Below, one piece after another: positions 700 through 17,684 of a stretch of 21,649 nt of DNA. The first letter of the stretch is position 1. Each line of letters starts with the position of its first letter. The notes under the pieces are model-generated. The model saw only the letters and a program-made list of their open reading frames with translations, did not search any database and was not told where the DNA came from. The translations under genes and the position numbers were made by a program. Origin of the DNA: Chthoniobacteraceae bacterium (GTDB lineage Bacteria; Verrucomicrobiota; Verrucomicrobiia; Chthoniobacterales; Chthoniobacteraceae); assembly GCA_031409655.1 (NCBI GenBank), contig JANNXQ010000287.1, positions 1 to 21,649 of the forward strand, in the 5' to 3' direction.

Positions 700-2784
700 A
701 TGCGACCCTCGCACACACTCATCACTGTCCTGCTCCTCGCCATTGCGGGCACGGGCTCGGAGGCCGCGCCATTTGTCGCAGGCTTCGATCGCTTCCACGG
801 CGCGCAGCCCTCGGAGGAAGGCGGGCGGCTGCTCTTCAATGAACTCGGCTGTGCGAATTGCCACGGTGGTGAGACGGGGCTGCCTGCGCGGCGCGGGCCG
901 GATCTCGTTGGGGTCACGCAGCGCGTGAGTGCGGAGTGGCTGCGAAAATTCCTCGCGAATCCGTCTGCGACGCATGAGGGCACGGCGATGCCGCAACTGC
1001 TGGCTCCGGACGAGAGTGATGCGGTGCTGCATTACCTCGGCACGCTGAAGCCGAAGGTGGCGGCGAAGCCGAAGGTGCTCCGGCATGTGAATGCCGTGCG
1101 TGGCGGCGAGCTGTTTCACACGATGGGCTGCGTCGCGTGTCATGCGCCGGGGAGGGATTTCACGCCGCCGGATGGGATGCCGAAGGCTGCGGATTTCACG
1201 CATCGCTCGGTCGCGTTTCCGAATCTCGCGGAGAAGCATGTGCTGTCGTCGCTCGCGGAGTTCATCCGCGATCCGCTGAAGGTGCGCGCGGATGGTCGCA
1301 TGCCGAAGACTGCAATGGATGAGCAGGACTCGGTGGACGTCGCGGGCTGGCTGCTGAATTTCGAGGGCAGCGACGGACAGATCGCGTCGAAGATTCCGGC
1401 GTTCAAGGCGGACGCTGCGCTCGCGGAACGCGGGCGCGGTCTGGTGGCGTCGTTGCGCTGCGCGGCGTGTCACGAGCTGCCGAAGGATGTGGCTGCGCAG
1501 CCGGTGGCGCTGAAGCGGACGGGCGGCGGATGCCTCGGCGATGCGAAGGCTGCCGGTGTCCCGCGCTACGATCTCAGCGCGGCGCAGCGCGAGGCACTTT
1601 CGCTCTTTTTGAAAAAGCGCGATGAGCCTGCGACTCCGCAGCAACTCGCGACGCTCACGCTCGAAGCGCTGAACTGTCTCGCATGCCACGACCGCGATGG
1701 ACGCGGCGGGCCGGATGTGGCGCGGAAGGCGTATTTTGTCGGCGACCACAATCTCGGCGACACGGGCCGCTACGCTCCGCCGCTCACGGGCGTGGGTCGC
1801 AAGCTGCAGCCCGAGTGGCTCGCGAAAGTGCTGACCGGGGAGTTCCGCGTGCGGCCGTATTTGCAGACGAAGATGCCGGTGTATGGCGCGGCGACGGCGA
1901 CGCTCGGTGCATTGCTCGCGAAGGCGGATGCGAAGACGGAAGCGGCGCTGCCCGGCGGCGACGACACCGCGGGGCGCAAACTCATGGGCACACTCGGCGG
2001 GCTTGGTTGCATCACGTGTCATCGCTGGGGCGAGCGCCCTTCGCTCGGCATCCAGGGGCTCGACCTGAGCAATCTTGGCCAGCGCATCCAGCTGGGCTGG
2101 TTCCGCGAGTATGTCGTGAATCCCGCGGCGTATCGCGCAGGCACGCTCATGCCTTCATTTTGGCCCGAGGGAATGGCGGCGAATCGCGACATCCTCGGCG
2201 GTGACACCGCGCGGCAGATCGCGTCCATCTACTCGTTTGCGAAGAGCGCGAATGGCGAGCCGGAGGGTTTCCCGGAAAATCAGAGCGGTGAGTTTGAAAT
2301 TGTCCCGAAGGAATTTCCCGTCGTGCAGCGGACCTTTATGGAAGGCGTCGGCACGCACGCCATCCTCGTCGGCTTTCCCCAAGGCGTGCATCTGGCCTAC
2401 GACGGGAAAAACGGACGTCCCGCACTCGCGTGGCGCGGCAAGTTCTTTGATGCCTACAACACTTGGTTCTCCCGGTTCGCGCCTTTTGAAAAGCCTATCG
2501 GGACGGAAGTCGTGCCATGGCCCACCGCCTCGGCTAGCAGCGCGGGCACAAGCTTCGACGGCTATCGCCTCGACGCGCAGCGCGTGCCGATCTTCCTGCT
2601 CACCATCGGAGGCGTGCGCGTCGAAGATCGCTTCGAGCCAAGCGACGGCGGACTGCGCCGCTCGCTGCAATGGGACGCCGCGGCGCTGCAAAGCATTGAG
2701 ATCACGCATCCCGATGGCGTCACCGTCGCCGAAGAATCCGACAGCGCTGCTGGCCACCGCCGGTTCACTTACCCCTGGAAATGA
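700..2784 (+). CDS. Secreted multiheme c-type cytochrome (5 CxxCH) of PVC type, with a non-heme C-terminal domain
   Basis: 694 aa with an N-terminal signal peptide (MRPSHTLITVLLLAIAGTGSEA). Heme motifs are CANCH, CVACH, CAACH, CLACH and CITCH, with class I cytochrome c features (GPDL/PPL, W..FL.NP, MP). It starts 2 nt after the upstream stop and overlaps the next gene by ATGA. Confidence 0.88.
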   Translation: MRPSHTLITVLLLAIAGTGSEAAPFVAGFDRFHGAQPSEEGGRLLFNELGCANCHGGETGLPARRGPDLVGVTQRVSAEWLRKFLANPSATHEGTAMPQLLAPDESDAVLHYLGTLKPKVAAKPKVLRHVNAVRGGELFHTMGCVACHAPGRDFTPPDGMPKAADFTHRSVAFPNLAEKHVLSSLAEFIRDPLKVRADGRMPKTAMDEQDSVDVAGWLLNFEGSDGQIASKIPAFKADAALAERGRGLVASLRCAACHELPKDVAAQPVALKRTGGGCLGDAKAAGVPRYDLSAAQREALSLFLKKRDEPATPQQLATLTLEALNCLACHDRDGRGGPDVARKAYFVGDHNLGDTGRYAPPLTGVGRKLQPEWLAKVLTGEFRVRPYLQTKMPVYGAATATLGALLAKADAKTEAALPGGDDTAGRKLMGTLGGLGCITCHRWGERPSLGIQGLDLSNLGQRIQLGWFREYVVNPAAYRAGTLMPSFWPEGMAANRDILGGDTARQIASIYSFAKSANGEPEGFPENQSGEFEIVPKEFPVVQRTFMEGVGTHAILVGFPQGVHLAYDGKNGRPALAWRGKFFDAYNTWFSRFAPFEKPIGTEVVPWPTASASSAGTSFDGYRLDAQRVPIFLLTIGGVRVEDRFEPSDGGLRRSLQWDAAALQSIEITHPDGVTVAEESDSAAGHRRFTYPWK

Positions 2785-4274
2785 AACTCGCCCTTTTCTC
2801 CCTCGCGCTACTGGTGAGCACTGCCGGGCTTGCGGCAGCCGCGCCTTACGAGATCCTCGACATCCTCACCGCGGATTCGCCGTCTGCGTCGCGCAGCAAG
2901 GACTGGAAGCCGGGCGCTGGCATCGCACTCGAAGTCAGCGGCATGGACTTTACCGCCGAGGGCAAACTCGCGGTCGCGATTCGCAAAGGTGAAGTGTACT
3001 TGCTGGATGGTGTGCTCGGCGGCGATGCGAGCAAGGTGACTTACAAGCTCTTTGCCTCGGGTCTGCACGAACCGCTCGGTCTGCTGCGCGACGGTGATGA
3101 TCTCCTCGTCGCTCAGCGCACGGAAGTCACGCGACTGCGCGACACGGACAAGGATGGCGTCGCTGACGAATATCTCACCGCGGGCCAGGGCTGGAACGTC
3201 TCGGGCGCATACCACGGCTACGCTTACGGACCCAAGCGCGACGGGCACGGCGATCTCTGGGTCTCGCTGAATGTGGACATGGGCGATCACGCGGACAATA
3301 AGGCGCCGTGGCGCGGCTGGGCCGGGATCATTGATCCGCATGGTAAGTTCAAAGCGATGGTCGCCGGGATGCGTTCGCCGTGCGGACTCGGCGCGAATGC
3401 GGCGGGCGATATGTTTTGCGTCGATCAGCAGGGCACGTGGATTTGCACCACACCGATCTATCATCTGCGATCCGGCGCGTTTTTTCTGAACCCCGAAGGC
3501 ATCGCCTCGCAGAATCTGCCCGGCTCCCCGCTTCACCTCTCCGCGCCCGTGCCAGAGAAGAGGCCGTATCCGGAAGCCGTGCGCGCACTGCCCGAAATGC
3601 GCCCGCCCGCCGTGTGGCTCCCCTACAACAAGATGGGCCGCAGCGGCACGGACCTCGTGACTATTCCCGCGGGCGGAAAGTTCGGCCCCTTCGACGGGCA
3701 GATGCTCGTCGCGGAATTCACCGATGCGAAGGTCGGGCGCGTCTTCATGGAGAAAGTGGACGGCGAATATCAGGGCGCGGCGTTTCCGTTCCTCGCTGGG
3801 TTTGCGTCGGGGATTGTGCGGCTGCTCTTCGCGCCGGACGGCAGTCTCATGGTCGGCATGACGAGCCGTGGATGGTCATCGCTCGGCACCAAGGCCTACG
3901 GACTGCAGCGGGTGCGCTGGAAAGGCGAGACTCCATTTGCCATCCGCGAGATGCGCGCTCGGCCGGATGGCTTCGAGCTCGCCTTCACTGAGCCCGTGGA
4001 TGCCTCGACCGCTGGCGATCCCGCGTCTTACGCCATGAAGAGCTACACGTATCTCTACAGCAGTGCGTATGGCAGCGAGGAGATCGAGACGCAGCCGTGT
4101 CCGATCGCGGGCGTGACCGTGAGCGAAGATCGCAAGAGCGTCATTTTGCAAGTGGATGGCCGGCGCGAACTCTACGTCCACGAGTTGCGCGCGGAAGGAG
4201 TCCGCTCGGTGGTAAAGGAAAGGCTCGATCACCCCGACGCCTACTACACGCTGAATCGCATCCCGAAACCGTAA
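2781..4274 (+). CDS. Secreted beta-propeller protein (glucose/sorbosone dehydrogenase-like PVC family) with a C-terminal beta-sandwich-like domain
   Basis: 497 aa with signal peptide MKLALFSLALLVSTAGLAAA. Propeller-type motifs: 'FASGLHEPLGL', 'TRLRDTDKDGVADEY', 'GMRSPCGLG', 'DQQGTW', 'FGPFDGQMLVAE', 'LFAPDGSLMVG'. 4-nt ATGA overlap with the cytochrome gene. Confidence 0.78.
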   Translation: MKLALFSLALLVSTAGLAAAAPYEILDILTADSPSASRSKDWKPGAGIALEVSGMDFTAEGKLAVAIRKGEVYLLDGVLGGDASKVTYKLFASGLHEPLGLLRDGDDLLVAQRTEVTRLRDTDKDGVADEYLTAGQGWNVSGAYHGYAYGPKRDGHGDLWVSLNVDMGDHADNKAPWRGWAGIIDPHGKFKAMVAGMRSPCGLGANAAGDMFCVDQQGTWICTTPIYHLRSGAFFLNPEGIASQNLPGSPLHLSAPVPEKRPYPEAVRALPEMRPPAVWLPYNKMGRSGTDLVTIPAGGKFGPFDGQMLVAEFTDAKVGRVFMEKVDGEYQGAAFPFLAGFASGIVRLLFAPDGSLMVGMTSRGWSSLGTKAYGLQRVRWKGETPFAIREMRARPDGFELAFTEPVDASTAGDPASYAMKSYTYLYSSAYGSEEIETQPCPIAGVTVSEDRKSVILQVDGRRELYVHELRAEGVRSVVKERLDHPDAYYTLNRIPKP

Positions 4275-5762: not shown

Positions 5763-7016
5763 ATGAATTTATCCTGCATCAAACGACTCTTCATCGCTCT
5801 GGCCCTGATCGGAGCCGCCTCCGCCGCTGAGATCGTCGGGCCGTGGAATCTCACCGAACTCTTCCAGCCGCCGGCGATGCAGTGGATCACGCAGACCGGA
5901 CCGGTGCATGCGCTGACCTACGAGGGCGAAGTATTCGAAGATCATCGCACGGATGTTTTTGCGTTCTATGCCTCGCCGGCCACGCTCGGATTAGCCGAGC
6001 CCGGCACGAAGTTTCCGGGAGTGGTGCTCATCCACGGCGGCGGTGGGACGGCGTTTGCGGAATGGGCGTGGCTCTGGGCGAAGCGGGGATACGCGGCGAT
6101 TGCCATGGATCTTTCCGGCCGACGCCCGCCGGACCCCACTTTCGATGCGAAAACGGGTGCGCCCTCGAATTCACCGAACGATGCCAAGCTGCGCACACGG
6201 CTCCCGAAAGGAGGACCGGAGCATGGGCATCCGGAGAAGTTCGACTCGATCGGCGGCACGAGTGCGGACGACTGGCCCTTTCACGCCGCCGCGTCCGTGA
6301 TCCGGGCGCACTCGCTGCTGCGTTCCTTTCCCGAAGTGGACGCGGAGCACACGGCGGTCACCGGGATCAGTTGGGGCGGCTACACGACGTGCCTCGTGGC
6401 CTCGCTCGATCATCGCTTCAAGGCCGCCGTTCCCGTGTATGGCTGCGGCTTTCTGCACGAAGGCGAATCCGTGCAGAAGGCGAGCATCGACAAACTCGGC
6501 GACCGTCGCGACGCGTGGGTGAAGGCTTACGATCCTGGCAGCCTGCTGCCGCGCTGCCGCGTGCCGATCCTTTTTGTCAATGGAACGAACGACGTTCACT
6601 ACCCTCTGGATAGTTACGAGAAGAGTTTCGATGTCGTGCCGCGCGAGAAGCAGATGCGGATCGAAGTGAAGATGCCGCACGGTCATCCGCCCGGGTGGGC
6701 ACCGCAGGAGATCGGGCTTTTCATCGACGCGCACTGTCGTGGTGGCGCGCCTTTACCGGTGCCTGGAAAGGTGGAGATCGCGGGCGAGAAAGTGCGCGTG
6801 GCTTTCACCAGCGCAGTGCCTCTGAAGTCTGCATCGCTCCACTACACCACCGATGCAGGCCTCCGCTCCAAGCGCGATTGGCAGAGTGTGCCTGCAACGA
6901 TCGACGGCGATCACGTGACCGCGCCAAAGCCGCCTGCGGAGGCGAACACGTGGTTCGTTACGCTGACTGACGAACGTGGCGCGATGATCACGACGCCGGT
7001 GCACTTTCAGCCGTAG
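5763..7016 (+). CDS. Secreted alpha/beta-hydrolase (acetylxylan esterase / dienelactone hydrolase-like)
   Basis: 417 aa with a signal peptide, 'VLIHGGGG', nucleophile elbow GISWGG, acid 'GTNDVHY' and histidine region 'MPHGH'. Confidence 0.85.
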   Translation: MNLSCIKRLFIALALIGAASAAEIVGPWNLTELFQPPAMQWITQTGPVHALTYEGEVFEDHRTDVFAFYASPATLGLAEPGTKFPGVVLIHGGGGTAFAEWAWLWAKRGYAAIAMDLSGRRPPDPTFDAKTGAPSNSPNDAKLRTRLPKGGPEHGHPEKFDSIGGTSADDWPFHAAASVIRAHSLLRSFPEVDAEHTAVTGISWGGYTTCLVASLDHRFKAAVPVYGCGFLHEGESVQKASIDKLGDRRDAWVKAYDPGSLLPRCRVPILFVNGTNDVHYPLDSYEKSFDVVPREKQMRIEVKMPHGHPPGWAPQEIGLFIDAHCRGGAPLPVPGKVEIAGEKVRVAFTSAVPLKSASLHYTTDAGLRSKRDWQSVPATIDGDHVTAPKPPAEANTWFVTLTDERGAMITTPVHFQP

Positions 7017-7053: not shown

Positions 7054-7117
7054 CCAAGGAGCAGGGGCGCCCTCGCCCCGAGGATCGACTGGGGGCGAGG
7101 GCGCCCCTAATCCTTGG
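7054..7117. repeat. REP-doublet-like long inverted repeat between convergent genes; possible bidirectional terminator or RNA stabiliser
   Basis: ccaagga-gc-aggggcgccctcgcccc ... ggggcgagggcgcccct-aa-tccttgg gives a 17-bp perfect inner stem plus a 7-bp outer stem. Each arm is itself a hairpin (ggggcg-N4-cgcccc). No U-tract. Confidence 0.75.
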
Positions 7118-7154: not shown

Positions 7155-9392
7155 TCAAAAGCGGTAGTCGAGGCTGACGAGGTCGAGGAGGGATTGCAGG
7201 ACGAGTCTTCCCCACGGGCGGGTGCCGGCGAAGATGCGGGCGCGGCCGGTCATGCCCTGGCGCAGGATGCCGTCGGGATTCTTTACTTCGATCTCGGCGG
7301 TGAAGACGCGTTCGAGCGGGACTTCCTTTCCGTGGGCGTCGTAGCCGGTGGGCACGTCGCCGGCGCGGCGGGCGGAAAAGGCGGCGGGCATGTCCTGGCC
7401 AACGAACATCAGCGGTTTGCTCGCGATCGTGCCTTCAAAGGTGCGCCCGGGATAGGCGTCGGCCTTGAGTCGCACGCGCTGCCCTTGCTCGACGTAGCGG
7501 ACCTGCTTTTCGTTGAGCGCGATTTTGATCCGCATCGGGTCCACGTTGACGATGTCGCAGAAAAGTTCGCCGGGTTTCAGCAGGCGACCCTGGAGATTCC
7601 CAGGATGCTTGGTGAGGACGGTGGTGTCGTGGGTGAGCACGGATCCGTTTTGTTTCGCGCGCAGGGTGAGCGCCTCGACGCTCCGCTGGCTTTCGGCAAA
7701 GCGGGCGCGCAGGCCGGCCACATTGTTTTCCCACTGCTTCTGCTCGGCCGGCAGGCCGAGGCCGAGGGCGCGCTGGAGTTGAGCTTCGGCGCCGCGGAGA
7801 CGTTGTTCGTCGGCGTAAAGATTCTGCTGCCGCTCGCGATTGGCGAGACGGGCGAGGGGCTGGCCGGAGCGCACCTGGTCACCTTCTTGCACCAGCACCT
7901 CGGCGATGAAGCCTTCCACTTCGGGCCGCACTTCCTCGGGTTCCGCGAGCTGCACGGCGCCGACGCGGGTGATCTTTAACTCGACGGGCACGAAGCACAT
8001 GACCCCGAAGATGCCGAAGGCGATGGCGCCGAAGAGCGAGAGCCGGCGGAGGCGTCCGCCACTTTTCCAGTCTGCGAGGGTGAGTTGCATGGTTTTGAAA
8101 AAGCCGATCAAGGGCATCGCGATCCAGGAGATCAAGGCCAGCGCGGTGAACCAGGTGGCCAGACCTTCGAGGCCGATGGGCTCGAGATGCGGCTTCATGA
8201 AGACGGCGAGGCTGTAGATGACGTAGTAGCCGTAGACCCACGAGAGCACGGCGTAGGTGTAGAAGAGCCAGAAGCGTTTTTTCGGCAGCGGCATCCTTGC
8301 GAGGGCCTGGTTGTTGCTCGAGCCGAAGAGGAGTTTCGTGAGCTGATGCTGGATGAGGGCGCGCGATTTCGCCTGGAGATTCGGCACCTCGATCGCGTCG
8401 GTCATGATGTAGTAGCCGTCGAAACGCATCAGCGGATTTGCGTTGAAGATGATCGTCGAGACCGAGGCGATGACCATCACGTTGAAGAGGAAATCCTGAA
8501 AAGGTCCCGGCTGCACGATGGCCCAGAGGAACGTGGCGAGCGCGGCGATCACGAGCTCCACGTAGATCCCGGCCGCGGAGACGAGGATGCGATGGACGCG
8601 GTTGGGCATCGTCCACGAGTCCGTCACATTCACGAAGAAGTAAGGCGTGAAGACCATGGACATCGCGCCGACTTCGTGGACCTCGCCGCCGTAGTGTTTG
8701 CAGGTCAGCCCGTGGCCGAGTTCGTGGACGGATTTGATGAGGATGGTCGTCACCCACATCAGGGCGATATTTTTGAAGGAGAAAAAGTTCTCCATCGTCG
8801 GCTGGATGCGCTCGACGTTCAGATAGAAGACGAGGATCGCGGCGAGGCAGAGGCCGATGGAGATCCACAGCGAAGTCCGCGTCCACATCCACCAGATCGG
8901 CTTCGCCATGCGGCCGAAGAGACGATCGGGATCGAAGAGCGAGAAGCGGAAGAAGAAGACCTGGTTGGCGAGATTGTAGAGGCCCTTCTTTTGAGACTTC
9001 TGGTTCTTCTTGGCGTCGAGGCGGGCTTTGAGCCGCATGCCCTGCACGCTCAGGAATTGCATGAGGGCCAGATCATTCGCGAAGCGCAGCACGCGCTCCT
9101 GAAGCTCCTCGATGGTGTAGTCGAGCCGCACGTGCGGATAGCGTTGCACGTAGGCCTCGCGGATCTGGCCGAAAGTGCGCGCGCCGTCGAAGAGCGTGGC
9201 GAGGTAGTAATCCTCGGCCGTCATCCGGAAATACTGGAGCGAGATGGGATCCTTGACGACGTAGTAGGTGCGGCCTTCGAAGGTCGTCTGACTGATGATC
9301 AGATCCCTCCGCAAGGGCGGCATCACCACATTTTCCTGCGCGGGGGGCGTCGGGGGCGCGAGCGGCTCGGGGTGGGTGACGGCGGCGCTCAT
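7155..9392 (-). CDS. PqqD/RRE-like domain + M50 (site-2) intramembrane zinc metalloprotease + HlyD-like membrane fusion domain
   Basis: 745 aa. HELGH zinc motif at 8712-8726 and NANPLMRFDGYY (third-ligand NPxxxxDG), among multiple hydrophobic segments. The N-terminus has 'YYVVKDP..QYFRM..YYLATLFDGARTFGQI' (PqqD-like). The C-terminus has a lipoyl-like 'EGFIAEVLVQEGDQVRSGQPLARL', a coiled hairpin and 'LRQGMTGRARI'. Confidence 0.88.
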   Translation of the reverse strand: MSAAVTHPEPLAPPTPPAQENVVMPPLRRDLIISQTTFEGRTYYVVKDPISLQYFRMTAEDYYLATLFDGARTFGQIREAYVQRYPHVRLDYTIEELQERVLRFANDLALMQFLSVQGMRLKARLDAKKNQKSQKKGLYNLANQVFFFRFSLFDPDRLFGRMAKPIWWMWTRTSLWISIGLCLAAILVFYLNVERIQPTMENFFSFKNIALMWVTTILIKSVHELGHGLTCKHYGGEVHEVGAMSMVFTPYFFVNVTDSWTMPNRVHRILVSAAGIYVELVIAALATFLWAIVQPGPFQDFLFNVMVIASVSTIIFNANPLMRFDGYYIMTDAIEVPNLQAKSRALIQHQLTKLLFGSSNNQALARMPLPKKRFWLFYTYAVLSWVYGYYVIYSLAVFMKPHLEPIGLEGLATWFTALALISWIAMPLIGFFKTMQLTLADWKSGGRLRRLSLFGAIAFGIFGVMCFVPVELKITRVGAVQLAEPEEVRPEVEGFIAEVLVQEGDQVRSGQPLARLANRERQQNLYADEQRLRGAEAQLQRALGLGLPAEQKQWENNVAGLRARFAESQRSVEALTLRAKQNGSVLTHDTTVLTKHPGNLQGRLLKPGELFCDIVNVDPMRIKIALNEKQVRYVEQGQRVRLKADAYPGRTFEGTIASKPLMFVGQDMPAAFSARRAGDVPTGYDAHGKEVPLERVFTAEIEVKNPDGILRQGMTGRARIFAGTRPWGRLVLQSLLDLVSLDYRF

Positions 9393-9420
9393 GTTCGACG
9401 TTCGAGGTTCATCCGAAGCC

Positions 9421-10158
9421 CTACTTCGGCGCGTTTCCCGTCCCGAAATCCGCGATCCCGCGCATCCCGGCCTTGATCTGGTGATCCGCGTTATCGATCA
9501 GCACTTTGACCCGGAAGAGGTTGGAGCCGGCATCAATGCGCGGGTCGATGAAGGAAATCTTGCCGGCGAATTCCGTCGCGCCGATGACCGGGATTTTCAC
9601 CTTCACGGGCTGGTCGAGTTTCAGCGCAGTCCAAAGCTTGGGATCGAGGTAAAACTGCACATAGACCTGATCGATGTTCACGATCTCGACGAGCTTCTCG
9701 GCGCGATCGACGGACTCGCCGTTCTCCTTGTGCTTCTTCACGACGATGCCGCTGAGGGGCGAGCGGATCGTTTTTTCCCGGAATGCAGCTTCCGCCAAGC
9801 GGTGCTGGATCCGGGTCAGGTCGAGTTGGGCGCGTTCTTCGAGCGCCTTCTCCTTGCTCCCCATTTTCTCGGCAAAAAGGGCCTCCGCGCCCTTGGATTT
9901 GAACTGCGCCAGTTCGATGATTTTTTCGGCCCGTTCGACATCCAGCATTTCCCGTTCGTCGCGGAGTTTCACGATGACCTGTCCTTCCTTCACAGTGTCG
10001 CCTTCATTCACGAGCACGGCCTCGACGACTTCCTGCAAGACGGGCGAGGCCACACTCACGGATTTGAACGGGACGACGAGCCCCTGGGTGTCCTCGGCGC
10101 GGATGAGCGATACCGTGAAAGATAGGGCGATCGGAAAAAGGAGGCGAGAGTGGATCAT
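9421..10158 (-). CDS. Periplasmic adaptor / membrane fusion protein (RND/HlyD-type), short, with a signal peptide
   Basis: 245 aa with signal-like N-terminus MIHSRLLFPIALSFTVSLIRA. Motifs 'VLVNEGDTVKEGQVIVKL', 'IRSPLSGIV', 'GKISFIDPRID...FRVKVLIDN...IKAGM' are characteristic of MFP lipoyl and beta-barrel parts. Confidence 0.9.
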   Translation of the reverse strand: MIHSRLLFPIALSFTVSLIRAEDTQGLVVPFKSVSVASPVLQEVVEAVLVNEGDTVKEGQVIVKLRDEREMLDVERAEKIIELAQFKSKGAEALFAEKMGSKEKALEERAQLDLTRIQHRLAEAAFREKTIRSPLSGIVVKKHKENGESVDRAEKLVEIVNIDQVYVQFYLDPKLWTALKLDQPVKVKIPVIGATEFAGKISFIDPRIDAGSNLFRVKVLIDNADHQIKAGMRGIADFGTGNAPK

Positions 10159-10230
10159 GGAGAAAAGATGCTCAGAGTCTGTGCTCAGACAGGCCGATGG
10201 GGTCCGGCGTTCGCCCGCGGCGCGCTGGGT

Positions 10231-12339
10231 TCATCGGATCCACTTGAGCCGTGCCCAAGCCCACACTCGGTTGGCCCAGATGAAGATGAGCGGGCGGCGA
10301 CCCATCTCGATGCTCGCGCGACCGGTCAGGCCTGGGCGCAGGGCGGGTTTGAGCTCTTCGCTCAACTGGAGGTCGCCGATCGAGACGACAAAAACATTCT
10401 CCGTTTCCCGCGGATGCGCGGCGGCGCTGAGCTGATCGTGGCTGGTGAGCTTCGTTTGCAGCTTCATCGCGCTCTGACTGTACAAGATGTAGCGCACGTT
10501 GATCGGCTGCGGGGTGCCGGTTTTCGGGACGAATTTCTCCAGGCGGCCGATGCGCTTTTCGGGGACGTCGATCTGGAGCACCCAGTCATCGAGAGCGGCG
10601 ACTTCGGCGAAGAGGGTGCCGGCTTGAATGAACTCGCCGGTGCGCAGATCGAGATCCTTGGTGAGCACCACGCCATCGATCGGCGAACGCAGAGTGGCAG
10701 CGGCGATGTCAAGCTGGATCTTTTTGCTGTTCTGCTCCGCGGCCCGCGCCTGGATGAGGGCGACTTGCGCGCCAGCTTCATCCGGTTGCGGACCACCGCG
10801 ATAGCGTTCTGCTTCGGCGACCAGACGCAGGCGCTCCTGTTCGTTTTGCGCCAGCTCGGTTTCGAGACGGCGGATGTCGAGTTGGGCGATTGGGTCGCCT
10901 TTTTTAACCCGCTGATTTTCGCGCGCGTGAACTTTGTCCACGCGGCCGGGCACTTCGGAGATCACGCCGCTGCGTACCACCGGGAGCACGGCGCAGTTGC
11001 CATCCACGCTGTCCATGCGTGGGTAAAAAAGGATCGCGCCGAGGATGGCGAGGATGACGAAGGTGCGGGTGAGGACGCGCTTGCGGTGCTGGCCAGTGAC
11101 CGCCACCCGAGCATTGCGCAGCCGCCGCGTGACGGCGAGGAAGGGCAGGGAGTGGTAGTCTTGCGCGGCCTGCAGCGAGCGTCCGGTGTGGATGGCGAGG
11201 AAGTCCGCGAGGCGGCTCGATTGGCTGGCCTCCTTGGCACCGGGCGCGCCATCGAAGAAAGCGTCCGCCGTGCTCTCCGCAAAATATGCGCCGACGAGCG
11301 CCTTCTCCTTATCGAGGATCGGCGCGATGGCGGCGCTGACGACATGGCTGAGCTCGAAGTAGGCGAGATCGATGGCGTCGGTGCGGGCGAGGGTGTGAAA
11401 TTTCTCCGGGGAATCCCCATTGGAGACGGCGACCGCGTTCCCGTTCTGAGCGGCTTCGGCGCGGGCGAGCAGTTCCTTTTTCGAGAGCACCACGCCTTCG
11501 GTGCGCGCGTGGGCGCCGACAAAGGCAGCCATCGCTTTCACCATGGAGCTCTTCTTTTCCACCACCTCCTGTCCCGAGATGGAGAGCACCTTCCATCGTC
11601 CGCCGTCGAGCGTGAGGATGGAGCAGCGCTCGCAGTTGAGGAGATCGCGCCCGTAGTTTGCGGCGAGCCGGGCGACCTCGAGTGGATCCAGCGAGCCCGC
11701 GAGGTCGCCGGTGAATTTCAGGACGTGCTGCAGGCGGTTGTTTTCCAGCACGAGATTGCCGAGGCGGCGCGACTGGAGGTGCTGCTCCACGTGACCCGCG
11801 AGCCCGCCGAGGAAGGTGGCGAACTCGTTGTAATTCTGCGGCGTGACGTAGGGTTGGAGCCACACTTGGAGGACGCCGAGCACCTGCTCTTTCAGGAAAA
11901 GCGGGACGTGCAGGAAAGGGTAGGGGGTCTTGTTGGGATTCGCCGGTTTTTCGCCACTTTGGAGTTGCGAGAGCTGGGCCTGCAGCGAGCTCGGGTCCGG
12001 CCGCCCCGCCGCCGAGCCCGGGAGCACGTGCGGCTGTTTGGTCTGCACCACCTCCGAGAGCATCCGCAGGACTACGGCGCGCATCTCCTCGTCGGATTGG
12101 AAAAGGGACGACTCAATTTCGACCTGGGCCGCGAGCTGGAATTCGCTCTTCCCATCCGCCGCCCGCTGCCCCACCAGCCACACCGCGCCGCCCTTGCCGT
12201 CGCAGGCCTGCACTGCCCGGACTAGGAATTGCCCGAAGTATTCCTCGCTCCGCAAATCTTTCCGGCTCAGGGCCGCAATCTCTTCCACCAGTCGCTGAAT
12301 TCGGGCACGCGCAGCGTCGATCGTTTGTTCCTGAGACAT
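10231..12339 (-). CDS. GAF-like domain(s) + single TM + HlyD-like membrane fusion protein
   Basis: 702 aa. The N-terminal region has GAF-like patterns ('DGKGGAVWLV', 'LHVPLFLKEQVLGVLQVW', 'LLNCERCSIL'). TM segment TFVILAILGAILFY, then MFP motifs 'PGRVDKVHARENQRVKKGDPIAQLD', 'LRSPIDGVVLT' and 'LRPGLTGRASI'. Confidence 0.85.
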   Translation of the reverse strand: MSQEQTIDAARARIQRLVEEIAALSRKDLRSEEYFGQFLVRAVQACDGKGGAVWLVGQRAADGKSEFQLAAQVEIESSLFQSDEEMRAVVLRMLSEVVQTKQPHVLPGSAAGRPDPSSLQAQLSQLQSGEKPANPNKTPYPFLHVPLFLKEQVLGVLQVWLQPYVTPQNYNEFATFLGGLAGHVEQHLQSRRLGNLVLENNRLQHVLKFTGDLAGSLDPLEVARLAANYGRDLLNCERCSILTLDGGRWKVLSISGQEVVEKKSSMVKAMAAFVGAHARTEGVVLSKKELLARAEAAQNGNAVAVSNGDSPEKFHTLARTDAIDLAYFELSHVVSAAIAPILDKEKALVGAYFAESTADAFFDGAPGAKEASQSSRLADFLAIHTGRSLQAAQDYHSLPFLAVTRRLRNARVAVTGQHRKRVLTRTFVILAILGAILFYPRMDSVDGNCAVLPVVRSGVISEVPGRVDKVHARENQRVKKGDPIAQLDIRRLETELAQNEQERLRLVAEAERYRGGPQPDEAGAQVALIQARAAEQNSKKIQLDIAAATLRSPIDGVVLTKDLDLRTGEFIQAGTLFAEVAALDDWVLQIDVPEKRIGRLEKFVPKTGTPQPINVRYILYSQSAMKLQTKLTSHDQLSAAAHPRETENVFVVSIGDLQLSEELKPALRPGLTGRASIEMGRRPLIFIWANRVWAWARLKWIR

Positions 12340-12379: not shown

Positions 12380-12412
12380 GCGAGGGGAGACCTTGAATCG
12401 GGCTGAGGGCAA

Positions 12413-12487
12413 CTCGTAATCGTAATCGTCCTCGTCCTCGTCCTCGATGCGTCAACGGTCGATTACGAGGACGAGGACGAGGACGAG
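12413..12487. repeat. Inverted array of hexamer tandem repeats ((C/A)TCGT(C/A))n ... ((G/T)ACGA(G/T))n
   Basis: Left arm ctcgta atcgta atcgtc ctcgtc ctcgtc ctcga (12413-12447), 11-nt spacer, right arm tcgat tacgag gacgag gacgag gacgag (12459-12487). The arms are near reverse complements. Confidence 0.85.
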
Positions 12488-12541
12488 CCGCCCCCGTCAT
12501 TCCTCTTCCTCGGCGCACCTGATCGCCAGCGGCAGGCGTAA

Positions 12542-12576: not shown

Positions 12577-13596
12577 GTGAACTCAGCCACGAAGCGCAAA
12601 CCCAGTCCTGACAAAACGACCGCCCTCAAAGGCACTTTCGAGCTCATCAATTCCCAGCTCTACTCGGTAGAAGAGCGCATCCGGCAGCAGGCACGGGCTT
12701 TCGATCCGGCGGTGGAGGGGTATGTGGCATATGCCATCGAGTCTCACGGAAAGCGGTTGCGGCCAGCGCTGGCTTTGCTGGCCGGAGGAGCGACCGGGAA
12801 TATCGGCCCCAGCCATCTGGATCTCGCGGTGATCCTCGAATTGATCCATGCCGCCACATTGGTCCACGACGACATCCTCGATGGCGCGGACAAGCGGCGC
12901 GGGCAACCCACGGCGAATGCGAAGTGGGGCAACGCGATCTCGGTGCTGCTCGGCGATTGCCTCTTTGCCCATGCGCTGAAGCTCTCGACCAGCTTTCCGA
13001 ACGGGGAGATCAGCCGGCGCATCGCGCACGCGGCTGCGGAGGTGTGCAGCGGCGAGATCATCCAGACGCAGCGGCGCTTCGACCTGAAGCTGAGCGTGCC
13101 GGATTATTACAAAATCATCGAAATGAAGACGGCCGCGCTTTTCGCGGCGGCGACGGAACTCGGTGCGTTCATCAACGAGGCCCCGCCCGACGTGATCAGC
13201 GCTCTGCGCACCTTCGGACTCCGACTCGGCACGGCCTATCAAATTTACGACGATGTGCTGGACCTCGCCGGCGACGAATCCACGGTCGGGAAAACGCTCG
13301 GCAGCGACCTGCGCAAGGGGAAGCTCACGCTGCCCGTCCTTTACTTGCTCCAAAACGCGGACATTGCGGAGCGGCATCGGCTCAGCGAAATCATCCTGAA
13401 TGGTGACGAGGGTGATATTCGCGCGCTGGCGGAACGCGCGCTCGAAGCGGGTGCGGTGAAGAGCGCCGTCGCGACCGCACGCAAGATGTTGCGTGAGGCG
13501 CAGGTGCAACTCGCGATCGTGCCGGAAAACAAATATTGCGAATCGCTTGCCGGACTGGTGACGACGCTCGACGCGATGCTCGTTCAATTCGTGTAG
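12577..13596 (+). CDS. ispB: Trans-polyprenyl diphosphate synthase (octaprenyl/heptaprenyl-type, IspB-like)
   Basis: 339 aa with 'GKRLRP', FARM 'ELIHAATLVHDDILDGADKRRG', 'KTAALF' and SARM 'YQIYDDVLD...GKTLGSDLRKGKLTLP'. A small residue (Ala) five positions before the FARM is consistent with a long-chain product. Confidence 0.9.
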   Translation: MNSATKRKPSPDKTTALKGTFELINSQLYSVEERIRQQARAFDPAVEGYVAYAIESHGKRLRPALALLAGGATGNIGPSHLDLAVILELIHAATLVHDDILDGADKRRGQPTANAKWGNAISVLLGDCLFAHALKLSTSFPNGEISRRIAHAAAEVCSGEIIQTQRRFDLKLSVPDYYKIIEMKTAALFAAATELGAFINEAPPDVISALRTFGLRLGTAYQIYDDVLDLAGDESTVGKTLGSDLRKGKLTLPVLYLLQNADIAERHRLSEIILNGDEGDIRALAERALEAGAVKSAVATARKMLREAQVQLAIVPENKYCESLAGLVTTLDAMLVQFV

Positions 13597-13691: not shown

Positions 13692-14324
13692 ATGAAAAAA
13701 TCCGCCTTCACGCTTATCGAACTCCTCGTCGTCATTTCGATCATCGCCATCCTCGCGAGCATCGCGGTCCCGGTGTTTGGAAAAACCATGGAGAAGGCGA
13801 AGGCGACGAACTGCGCGGCAAACCTGCGGCAACTGGGCTTGGGCACGGTCGCCTACCTGAATGACAATGAAGACATGATGTTCACGCCAGGAGCAGCCGA
13901 GGGAGATGGGAGCACCTGGCCGCAGACGCTGCACTCGAAGTACGTGACGAATTGGAAAGTGTTCCGCAGCCCCTTCGACAAACGTCCTGATAGGGACGAT
14001 AACAGCGCGCCCGTGAGTTACGGATTTAACCAGAACGTCCTCGGTGTTCACACCTCGAAGTTTGAGTCGCCTTCGCAGCTCATCATGATCGCTCCGGCAA
14101 TTGAAGGCGGCAAAGAAATCCGCTTTTCCGGCTCGGCGTTGCAAAACGTCAGTGTCTCGCCCGGGACGGGCGCCGAGAGCGGCACCCATACGAATCGCAC
14201 GCAGATCAATGTGGCCTATGCTGACGCTCACACCGCGAGCATCAACGCGCGCGAGTTTGCCGAAGCCTCCGGCACCGAAGGATTGCGGCGCTGGTTTCCA
14301 GCGGGGGCCGCGGCCACCGAATAG
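13692..14324 (+). CDS. PVC-type prepilin N-terminal cleavage/methylation domain protein with an H-X9-DG-like C-terminal motif
   Basis: ATG at 13692 gives MKKSA|FTLIELLVVISIIAILASIAVP...AKATNCAANLRQLG. It also has 'SYGFN' and C-terminal 'HTNRTQINVAYADAH'. 210 aa. Confidence 0.88.
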   Translation: MKKSAFTLIELLVVISIIAILASIAVPVFGKTMEKAKATNCAANLRQLGLGTVAYLNDNEDMMFTPGAAEGDGSTWPQTLHSKYVTNWKVFRSPFDKRPDRDDNSAPVSYGFNQNVLGVHTSKFESPSQLIMIAPAIEGGKEIRFSGSALQNVSVSPGTGAESGTHTNRTQINVAYADAHTASINAREFAEASGTEGLRRWFPAGAAATE

Positions 14325-14351: not shown

Positions 14352-15614
14352 TCATGGGAAAAGCCCGCGACTCTTCTTGGCCGCGAGTACGCGTTCGACG
14401 CCGATGGCCATCGCCGCCATGCGGTGCGGAAGCTTGGCTTCCTTGGCGCGTTTGATCACGGCGGTGAAGGCTTGCTCGAGGATGCGGAAAAGACGGTCCA
14501 TCACTTCGCTCTCGTTCCAGAAGACATTCTGCAGCCCCTGCACCCACTCAAAGTAGGAGACGACCACGCCGCCCGCGTTGCAGAGGATGTCGGGGATTAC
14601 GAAAATCTCGGCCCATCGCTCCGCGAGGATGCGATCCGCGCCGGGCGTGGTCGGCCCGTTGGCCCCTTCGGCGAGGATGCGGCAGCGGAGCTTCCCGGCA
14701 TTGTGTTCCGTGATCACGGCTTCGATGGCAGCGGGCACGAGTACGTCGCACTTGAGGGTCAGTAAATCTTCCGGCGGGAGCGGGTCCGCGCCGGGAAAGC
14801 CTTGCAGACTCCCGTGGGTCGCCGCGTATTTTTCCGCGGAGGCGACGTCGATCCCCTCGGCACGGTGATAGGCCCCGTATTGATCGCTGAGGCCGATCAC
14901 CTTCATCCCGCTTTTGTAGGCCAGGCCGAGCGCCGTCACCGCGCCCACATTGCCAAAGCCCTGGATCACCGCGGTGCAGCCTTCCGGCTTCATCTTCAGC
15001 ACATTCAGCGCGCGCTCGATGAGATAGACCACGCCGCGCCCGGTTGCCTCGCGCCGCCCCACGGTGCCGCCGGCGGCGATCGGTTTGCCCGTCACGATGC
15101 CCGGTACCGAGTGCCCCGCATAGACCGAGTAGGTGTCCATGAACCACGCCATGACCTGCTCATTCGTGCCCATGTCGGGACCCATGATGTCGGTGTGTTC
15201 GCCCACAAAGGGGATCATCTCCTGCATGTAGCGGCGCGAGAGGGCTTCGAGTTCGCGCAGCGAAAGGGTACGCACATCCACGGCCACCCCGCCTTTTGCG
15301 CCGCCGTAGGGCAGGCCAGTCAGCGCGCACTTCCAGCTCATCCACATCGAGAGCGCCGCAACTTCACCAAGCGTCACCGAGGGGTGAAAGCGGGTGCCGC
15401 CTTTGGTTGGCCCGAGCGCGAGGTGATGCTGCACCCGGTAACCTTGGTAGGTGACGATGCGCCCGTCATCCATCCGCACGGGCAAGGTCACAGCCATCGC
15501 GCGCTTCGGATGGGACATGCGCTGGCGCAGGTTTTCGTCGATCTGGAGGTAGTCGGCGACGATCTGAAATTGCTCCGTGGCCATCGCGTAAGCGGGATCG
15601 GTGTAGATATCCAT
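14352..15614 (-). CDS. gdhA: Glu/Leu/Phe/Val dehydrogenase, most likely glutamate dehydrogenase
   Basis: Motifs 'GYRVQH...GPTKGGTRF', 'LPYGGAKGG', 'GPDMGT', 'ATGRGV', Rossmann 'QGFGNVG', 'EGANGP' and 'NAGGVVVSYFEWVQ'. Start is either ATG 15614 (chosen) or GTG 15632. Confidence 0.92.
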   Translation of the reverse strand: MDIYTDPAYAMATEQFQIVADYLQIDENLRQRMSHPKRAMAVTLPVRMDDGRIVTYQGYRVQHHLALGPTKGGTRFHPSVTLGEVAALSMWMSWKCALTGLPYGGAKGGVAVDVRTLSLRELEALSRRYMQEMIPFVGEHTDIMGPDMGTNEQVMAWFMDTYSVYAGHSVPGIVTGKPIAAGGTVGRREATGRGVVYLIERALNVLKMKPEGCTAVIQGFGNVGAVTALGLAYKSGMKVIGLSDQYGAYHRAEGIDVASAEKYAATHGSLQGFPGADPLPPEDLLTLKCDVLVPAAIEAVITEHNAGKLRCRILAEGANGPTTPGADRILAERWAEIFVIPDILCNAGGVVVSYFEWVQGLQNVFWNESEVMDRLFRILEQAFTAVIKRAKEAKLPHRMAAMAIGVERVLAAKKSRGLFP

Positions 15615-17487: not shown

Positions 17488-17684
17488 GGAGCATGCGCGT
17501 CCCGCGCGTTGGTTTCGGCGTCCCGCCGAAACGGACTTTCGAGGGCGTGCGGGTCGGCAAGGGTTTTGAGACTTGAAGCTGTCGCGGGGTTTCTTTCCGG
17601 TGTGAAATTCGTGCGGAAGGCGTCCTCGCAAGGAAGTTCGTCGCGGCGGGACGCCGCGACCCACACGCGGGACACGTGTGCTCC
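17488..17684. repeat. Composite palindromic (REP/MITE-like) element with terminal inverted repeats and two internal hairpins
   Basis: The 5' arm ggagcatgcgcgtcccgcgcgttgg (17488-17512) pairs imperfectly with ccacacgcgggacacgtgtgctcc (17661-17684). Internal hairpins are gtttcggc-gtccc-gccgaaac (17512-17532) and gtcgcggc-gggac-gccgcgac (17640-17660). Confidence 0.75.

Follow-up and report, generated by a model that had tools for sequence, protein, structure and literature searches.

In type I secretion, as in the HlyB–HlyD–TolC system, an ATP-binding cassette (ABC) transporter serves as the inner-membrane motor and pore, and the cargo is marked by a C-terminal RTX or a double-glycine signal; the peptidase-containing ABC transporters (PCATs) carry a C39 protease and couple the cleavage of a leader to export. 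Here, we analysed a 21,649-nucleotide (nt) stretch of DNA from a Chthoniobacteraceae bacterium (GCA_031409655.1, contig JANNXQ010000287.1, positions 1 to 21,649; hereafter the window), which carries at 7155..12339, on the minus strand, an operon of three genes. Each gene encodes a membrane fusion protein (MFP) domain, and in one of them this domain is fused to a RiPP recognition element (RRE; RiPP, ribosomally made peptide with post-translational modifications) and an M50 intramembrane protease. The operon probably encodes the core, in the inner membrane and the periplasm, of a type-I-like exporter that is guided by a leader, cleaves this leader and has no motor of its own.

A triad of Peptidase_M50-HlyD, HlyD/biotin-lipoyl and GAF-HlyD proteins encoded beside a short "secondary SecA_DEAD", sometimes with TolC, was described in silico by Kamneva, Poudel and Ward in 2015 (PMC4452313), who reported no ABC transporter and suggested that the short SecA acts as the ATPase and that the M50 protein forms the pore. 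The role of the module was left unassigned; the available portions of the main text name no cargo and mention neither a leader, PqqD/RRE, Planc_extracel nor DUF3467. In the short SecA of these related loci, SecA_SW, which is implicated in the contact with SecYEG, is wholly or mostly missing, and the S13 heatmap lists two Methylacidiphilum genomes and may show cases without SecA (PMC4452313). Thus, the triad and the idea of M50 as the pore, which an earlier interpretation of the window made from the letters alone (the sequence-only reading) had put forward as a candidate under-described system, were already in print.

Daptide precursors carry an ELExMEAP leader, with Pro at position −1 and Leu at −7, and are freed by a fusion of an RRE and a site-2 protease (PMC10036551, available in part), and the M50 protein EpeP is thought to cleave and also to export its peptide (PMC10885120, likewise). 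An N-terminal motif of the ExLExR type, carried by large proteins of Planctomycetes and Verrucomicrobia, has been believed to direct export since 2004 (according to the available part of PMC8567305); in Tuwongella, 52 genes carry LxLExLExRxxP, proteomics detected 20 of them, and the motif is believed to be an export signal of a novel kind (PMC8567305). The family PF07595 is listed as a signal in PMC11451748 and PMC10952558, and a 2026 preprint (10.64898/2026.03.19.712371, available in part) describes Chlorobium LEPRxLL giants without known transport signals, for which SapC/TolC/HlyD are proposed. In a literature search that reached few subscription papers, no exporter for the ExLExR motif was found, and neither was a pairing of ExLExR cargo with the triad through an RRE, nor a lineage of triads without the short SecA. 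A link between tag and module through the RRE-protease would join a 2015 module that has no cargo with a motif that has no exporter.

Domain composition of the operon proteins

The RRE-M50-MFP fusion of 745 amino acids (aa) is encoded at 7155..9392 (minus strand, as are all operon features given below) and was delineated by Pfam and NCBIfam profiles and by structure comparison. Residues 23–117 (9042..9326) form a PqqD-like RRE, the leader-binding site predicted by structure comparison and by the complex model described below. They aligned with the lasso-peptide RRE 5v1u with a Z of 10.5 and an rmsd of 2.5 over 84/84 residues (VIA-align), and with the lasso-peptide RRE 6jx3 with a Z of 10.3. 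Because the Pfam PqqD profile gave no match on the 745-aa fusion, the RRE assignment is based on structure.

Residues 204–335 (8388..8783) form the M50/site-2 protease core, as shown by the structural matches to RseP (7w6z, Z 10.2) and SpoIVFB (8vjl, Z 9.6) and by the motifs HELGH (residues 223–227, 8712-8726) and NANPLMRFDG (residues 317–326, 8415-8444). Residues H223, E224, H227, N317, P320, D325, and G326 are invariant in 42/42 aligned homologues, and HExxH is present in 140/140. The Pfam M50 profile scored 24.6 bits, below its cut-off of 27.2, and the closest family match of the N-terminal half was NCBIfam NF041824 (daptide intramembrane metalloprotease; E 6e-50), with 170 bits, below its cut-off of 300. 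Residues 471–724 (7221..7982) form a periplasmic MFP domain that was matched to MexA (1vf7, Z 16.3; Foldseek E 7.5e-15). For the full-length model, only adaptors were among the matches listed by Foldseek, and a wider structural aligner found the RRE and M50 domains. These results indicate that the PqqD-like, M50, and MFP parts proposed earlier for this protein are all matched by structure, with the HELGH motif intact.

For the 702-aa adaptor encoded at 10231..12339, the Pfam GAF and HlyD matches, the structure model and the hydropathy delineate a cytoplasmic tandem GAF (residues ~1–396), a membrane anchor (422–440, the single hydrophobic segment in the hydropathy scan) and an MFP domain (~456–680). 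The GAF at 218–359 exceeded the Pfam cut-off, whereas the second GAF, at 94–186, stayed below it, as did the match to NCBIfam RND_mfp. The model (pLDDT 92) resembles the tandem-GAF structures of PDE5A and CyaB2 (E ~1e-9), and a fold search of the GAF region returned known tandem GAFs only and no hidden motor. The expected arrangement of GAF-like, transmembrane, and MFP parts was thus borne out, with two GAFs.

For the 245-aa stand-alone MFP adaptor (9421..10158; TIGR01730 and Pfam HlyD), TIGR01730 scored 133.9 bits, compared to a cut-off of 94.9, and no inner-membrane anchor was detected. The protein had been described as an MFP with a signal peptide. The MFP domain stands; a cleavable signal peptide is probable, judged by eye and from homologues, and was not flagged by a 19-residue hydropathy scan.

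The intergenic gaps of the operon are 72 and 28 nt, and all three proteins exceeded the Pfam cut-off for HlyD_D23/HlyD_3, in agreement with the sequence-only reading of three co-oriented genes that each encode a HlyD/MFP domain. That reading also held for what the operon lacks, namely an ATPase, a pump, TolC, and cargo: a Walker A motif was seen in 0/3 proteins, and the Pfam scan revealed no ABC ATPase, RND or MFS permease, or short SecA in the window.

A conserved N-terminal tag on large proteins

The source genome (G000; 6.85 Mb, 306 contigs, 94.9% complete) was searched for cargo with a motif pattern, because NF012209 (LEPR-XLL) and PF07595 (Planc_extracel) gave no match over cut-off. NF012209 did not match the tags described here, nor anything in the controls, and PF07595 gave two matches below cut-off, one of them on the giant protein of a paralogous locus on contig C17 (see below). 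The pattern E.LE.R[ILV][AV]P[AS] was found in 38 open reading frames (ORFs) vs 0 in the reversed ORFs, all on contigs other than that of the operon. The motif of these ORFs can be written [IL]ExLExRIAPA; the tag is nearly always ExLExRIAPA, and the conservation stops after the last Ala. The ExLExR core, as seen by eye, is common to these RIAPA tags and to the Planc_extracel/LEPR-XLL motifs.

The tag lies within 25 residues of a Met in 36/38 ORFs, and these N-terminally tagged ORFs encode 268–2872 aa, with a median of 750. At the DNA level, 39 sites were found vs the 38 ORFs, the protein set having excluded ORFs shorter than 80 aa. The mature parts of the tagged proteins contain 18% Gly and almost no Cys or Trp, and their leaders have no hydrophobic core, the highest 10-residue hydropathy being 1.23. 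Six tags checked in three other genomes (G034, G003, and G046) lie in open frames of 148–3853 residues, five of them no more than 15 residues from a Met and the sixth 41 residues past it. In addition, three tagged proteins of relatives, scanned after the leader, showed 0 Pfam families over cut-off.

Tagged genes also occur in tandem arrays, at G000:C126:311-27762 (10 genes), C230:20124-30214 (at least 5), and C179:10190-15395, and many of the array-encoded proteins share a C-terminal segment resembling IARIASIxIGG...DHFGFVAQQIGSF...DVTLREV.

Model of the tag bound to the fusion

A complex of fusion residues 20–440, zinc, and a 32-residue tagged N-terminus was modelled, and its score was 0.64, compared to 0.05 for the best control. 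In the calibration, which holds only roughly for this model (own alignments, zinc included), the mark was reached by 116/157 solved and 2/215 mismatched pairs. The runs agreed in at least 83% of the contacts, with a partner pLDDT of at least 52.

In the model, leader residues 3–6 pair with the RRE strand 53–57 and extend the sheet, Arg9 lies near residues 255–260, where D258 and W260 are conserved, and the leader contacts reach H223, E224, and H227 of the zinc motif and residues 323–328. Furthermore, the tag L-E-x-R-I-A-P and the daptide leader ELExMEAP share L, E, A, and P at equal spacing. The model supports binding of the tag to the fusion, short of showing it.

Co-occurrence of the tag, the triad, and TolC

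The RRE-M50 tree was calculated with FastTree from 138 of 140 rows, two duplicate loci having been left out. The window falls within a verrucomicrobial clade of 42 rows (FastTree support 94, unstarred), and the neighbouring clade is mainly planctomycete, often with an adjacent short SecA. The close homologues that bear names are Chthoniobacteraceae, and the M50 fusion was found in 72/301 Verrucomicrobiota genomes.

A profile of 120 further genomes from this order showed the tag in 10/12 genomes with the M50 lineage of the window and in 7/108 others; at least two tags were seen in 9/12 and 2/108, respectively. Three genomes unplaced in the tree (G002, G018, and G051) were counted among the 108, and over all 19 M50-positive genomes the split was 10/19 vs 7/101. 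No p-value is relied on, because kin genomes are not independent. DUF3467 was found in 11/12 genomes of the lineage; a search of the ESM Atlas with it returned only DUF3467 clusters.

Tagged proteins of 1.1–1.5 kaa are encoded directly abutting the triad at four loci (L060, L090, L096, and L097), and at L059 the tagged gene is divergent and adjoins the triad. TolC immediately follows the triad in 7/11 other members of the 12-row clade of the window; three of the others are cut by contig ends, and one is a stand-alone gene. In the source genome, a TolC orthologue with 47% identity to the TolC encoded after the triad of G076 stands alone at G000:C90, and a lone DUF3467 gene lies at G000:C99. Together with the 38 tagged ORFs on other contigs, these genes agree with the expectation that the channel and the cargo are encoded elsewhere.

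The neighbourhoods, for which the gene calls of relatives were inspected in a subset and no RND query was made, yielded no ABC or RND pump cognate to the triad. ABC-ATPase matches lie within the flanks of 17/138 loci at no fixed position, the one checked with Pfam being Wzt, and RND-like genes lie a few kb off on the opposite strand in L088 and L159. At the phylum level, the DNA pattern of the RIAPA tag was multi-copy only in G000 and G003, and 16 other genomes gave single matches near background. The pattern was rejected as a phylum-wide marker, because it is not informative beyond the order, where the tag takes other forms.

Several related arrangements were also observed. In G248, a closed genome with one SecA, the locus L157 is a peptide-scale version of the module, in which a free PqqD gene heads a triad-TolC operon and a 144-aa ORF bearing an EELESRQLFA tag lies close by (15082-15393 and 18089-18520, respectively). 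The loci L159–L173 form a second group without the short SecA (families f29, f36, f46, and f60), several with TolC-like neighbours and large proteins that start with YxLExRILFD. A MethyTransf_Reg methyltransferase, which might modify cargo, recurs near triads or cargo (L060:17003-18760, L062:130-1749, and L162:675-2339), and no full-length orthologue of it was found in G000.

It is also conceivable that the substrates matured and exported by the module are small RiPP-like peptides and that the large tagged proteins leave the cell otherwise, a reading suggested by the daptide peptidase as the closest family of the N-terminal half, by the free PqqD gene and 144-aa tagged ORF of L157, and by one genome with tags in which the module was not found (G048). 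However, the window showed no small precursor, none of the N-terminally tagged ORFs is shorter than 268 aa in a set that excluded ORFs below 80 aa, and the triad-linked tagged genes of close relatives encode giants. We therefore give this reading little credence.

SecA genes and the source of energy

The sequence-only reading had expected the energiser to be encoded elsewhere; most genomes of the lineage are without any short SecA. An adjacent short SecA was found at 0/42 lineage loci vs 33/138 loci overall, with many loci cut by contig ends. A single SecA_DEAD gene, the housekeeping one, is present in 15/17 genomes of the clade, including the closed genomes G034, G248, G304, and G392 (in G392 the fusion looks split in two), and the two exceptions, G000 and G068, also carry the C17-type paralogue described below. 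Looser SecA searches in 8 of these genomes found the canonical gene only. Across the phylum, 43 of the 69 genomes tested gave a single SecA_DEAD match, another 23 possess a second, short SecA (adjoining an M50 gene in 22), and three have a split or duplicated long SecA. Because 43/69 genomes have one SecA_DEAD gene, the ATPase proposed in 2015 is not general. Two genomes, G150 and G285, have two long SecA genes each (929–1028 aa), which differ from the short secondary SecA.

As to the energy source, borrowing of the housekeeping SecA comes close to being an even bet in our judgement. Export without any ATPase, driven by co-translational pushing, the proton-motive force or a folding ratchet outside the cell, is a reasonable but less favoured possibility, and an unrecognised ATPase would be unexpected.

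The housekeeping SecA could also act in two steps: the RRE-M50 part would target and cleave the cargo and hand it to SecA/SecYEG, the adaptor-TolC sleeve would serve the periplasm and the outer membrane, and M50 would form no pore. This route fits the housekeeping protein being the sole SecA in 15/17 lineage genomes, the free MFP having no inner-membrane anchor and the M50 model being a compact site-2-protease bundle, and, according to the available part of the preprint, Chlorobium symbiosis proteins are kept in the periplasm without a partner (10.64898/2026.03.19.712371). Conversely, the tags have no hydrophobic h-region, and the short SecA of related loci, lacking all or most of SecA_SW (PMC4452313), argues for a SecY-independent ancestor. 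We consider the two-step route unlikely.

Paralogous triads in the source genome

The source genome has two further triads, at C17 and C295. The C17 locus (L002:171-17571) encodes an M50-MFP, an MFP, a 629-aa short SecA, TolC, and a giant protein (~3,350 aa) that bears a Planc_extracel-like tag. The DUF3467 gene of this locus and the start of its GAF-MFP gene probably lie at the end of C19 (G000:C19:39586-41502). The locus is 55–68% identical to one in the closed genome G059. The only short SecA of G000 belongs to this paralogous locus and was rejected as the motor of the lineage, because it is absent from 15/17 genomes.

The presence of a short SecA and TolC at C17 would fit a triad in the window that serves the short-SecA machine of C17/C19 as an accessory, or that is a decaying remnant. 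As for an accessory, the C17 M50 protein is placed far off in the tree, and the giant encoded next to it carries another tag; as for a remnant, the three window genes are intact and their orthologues persist in closed genomes without a short SecA. Of the explanations weighed here, this one appears the least credible.

In the C295 triad (L001:3073-4743), an extracytoplasmic function (ECF) sigma factor (Sigma70 r2/r4) is fused in frame to an internal QPLEQRRVPS and an acidic tail, and the fusion is flanked by the MFP gene on one side and the GAF-MFP gene on the other. A coupling of secretion to transcription is one possible role; alternatively, two genes may have been joined by a lost stop codon.

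This tag-like sequence next to an ECF sigma factor, the RseP and SpoIVFB structures as the nearest solved M50 folds, and the LuxR genes in some loci would suit a signalling function, in which M50 performs regulated intramembrane proteolysis, the GAFs sense a ligand and the adaptors report the envelope state. A signalling system is hardly expected, however, to have three adaptors and, in close relatives, a directly linked TolC, nor dozens of large Gly-rich tagged proteins without other export signals, and there is no regulator in the operon of the window. We regard signalling as quite improbable.

Flanks of the operon and the rest of the window

The operon had been described as a unit closed on both sides. 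A divergent polyprenyl synthetase gene (12577-13596) and a convergent alpha/beta hydrolase gene (5763-7016), both identified by the Pfam scan, do flank it, and the long palindrome between the operon and the hydrolase gene (7054-7117; fold z −6.75) is a real hairpin. However, it is a member of a dispersed intergenic family with ~106 loci in the genome; it was rejected as an operon-specific element and was absent from the U-tract terminator matches. The promoter scan of the window gave 0 sigma-70-like sites, and the sequencing runs listed included no RNA data set.

A second dispersed intergenic palindrome family, with ~32 loci in the genome, is represented at 12400-12500. The remainder of the window has ordinary content for the Planctomycetes–Verrucomicrobia–Chlamydiae (PVC) group: planctomycete-type cytochrome c/DUF7133 dehydrogenase-like genes, a sulfatase, and glutamate dehydrogenase at 700-4274 and 17680-20649, and a prepilin-type N-methylation protein at 13692-14324.

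Proposed mechanism and comparison with known systems

The type I-like route with leader cleavage put forward in the sequence-only reading is supported by the leader modelled in the RRE/M50 site and by TolC after the triad in relatives. In the mechanism that we propose, the cytoplasmic RRE would bind the ExLE strand of the tag, and the tag would run into the zinc site of M50, where the daptide register and the end of conservation suggest a cut at or just after Pro-Ala. From the domain content and the gene order in relatives, the freed N-terminus would thread first into a mixed sleeve of the GAF-MFP, the free MFP, and the M50-MFP, which would dock on TolC encoded in trans (G000:C90). DUF3467 may be a small accessory factor, and the tandem GAF may be a cytoplasmic scaffold or sensor.

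More tentatively, and with considerable doubt, we suggest that this may be a distinct secretion system, in which a RiPP-type RRE and a site-2 protease replace the ABC transporter, clip the N-terminal ExLExRIAPA in the membrane and pass large proteins by the dozen, starting from the N-terminus, into a conduit of three adaptors and TolC without a dedicated ATPase. The short SecA would then be an optional add-on in other lineages, and the system would be the missing exporter of the PVC "ExLExR" surface proteins.

Several observations weigh against these proposals. To our knowledge, M50 folds are not known as protein-conducting pores. The score of the complex model may come from likeness, because RRE-leader complexes have already been solved (5v1u and 6jx3), and since G000 also has the C17 and C295 triads, the assignment of a machine to the 38 tags rests on the cross-genome profile. 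The three genes, taken earlier to act together, are not always together: the closest homologue (L076), an M50 fusion with 82% identity, stands alone, and one or two of the triad genes are present at the Prosthecobacter-type loci and at L085–L089 and L091. In G048, an assembly of 120 contigs that is 96% complete, there are 23 tags and a DUF3467, and no M50-MFP, GAF-MFP, or close TolC was found; either a single assembly gap of ~7.5 kb or export by another route would account for this. At L174 of the same genome (G048:C32), DUF3467 lies among three tagged genes beside a MacAB-like ABC set. Two genomes with the lineage M50 (G106 and G086) showed no tag under the pattern used, and G046 yielded no TolC that is close to the type linked to the triad.

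The link between tag and module can be tested by means of a short peptide, the catalytic Glu (E224), and the predicted cut site. If it is true, protein secretion would have recruited a RiPP leader-peptidase, and proteins of thousands of residues could be directed to export by a tag of 10 residues.

The operon differs from RND and MFS tripartite pumps in that no permease is co-encoded in the window. It shares with type I systems and PCATs the MFP adaptors and TolC and, as predicted here, the coupling of leader cleavage to export. In contrast to these systems, it has no ABC transporter, its protease is a zinc M50 rather than a C39 enzyme, the three MFPs are different from one another, and an N-terminal tag would be read by the RRE instead of a C-terminal RTX or a double-glycine signal. 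Because the ABC transporter is missing, the operon is not a member of the type I systems.

As in the daptide peptidases MpaP/DapP, in so far as they are covered by the available text, an RRE lies N-terminal to a site-2 protease with HExxH and NxxPxxxxDG, and the leaders are in register. Unlike them, the window fusion scores below the family cut-off and has a periplasmic MFP domain, and the putative substrates are 268–2872 aa and not short peptides; the window contains neither short precursors with a terminal Thr nor tailoring enzymes or ABC transporters of the daptide kind. The tags share the ExLExR core at the N-terminus of large proteins with Planc_extracel (PF07595, RRLxxExLExRxLLA) and LEPR-XLL (NF012209), whereas neither profile passes its cut-off on the RIAPA tags. 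Finally, the module of Kamneva et al., as given in the available parts of PMC4452313, is defined by an adjacent short SecA, which was seen at 0/42 loci of the window lineage and is lacking from 15/17 of its genomes, whereas the two have in common the same three protein types, the absence of an ABC transporter, an optional outer-membrane channel (OEP), and members that can be unlinked.

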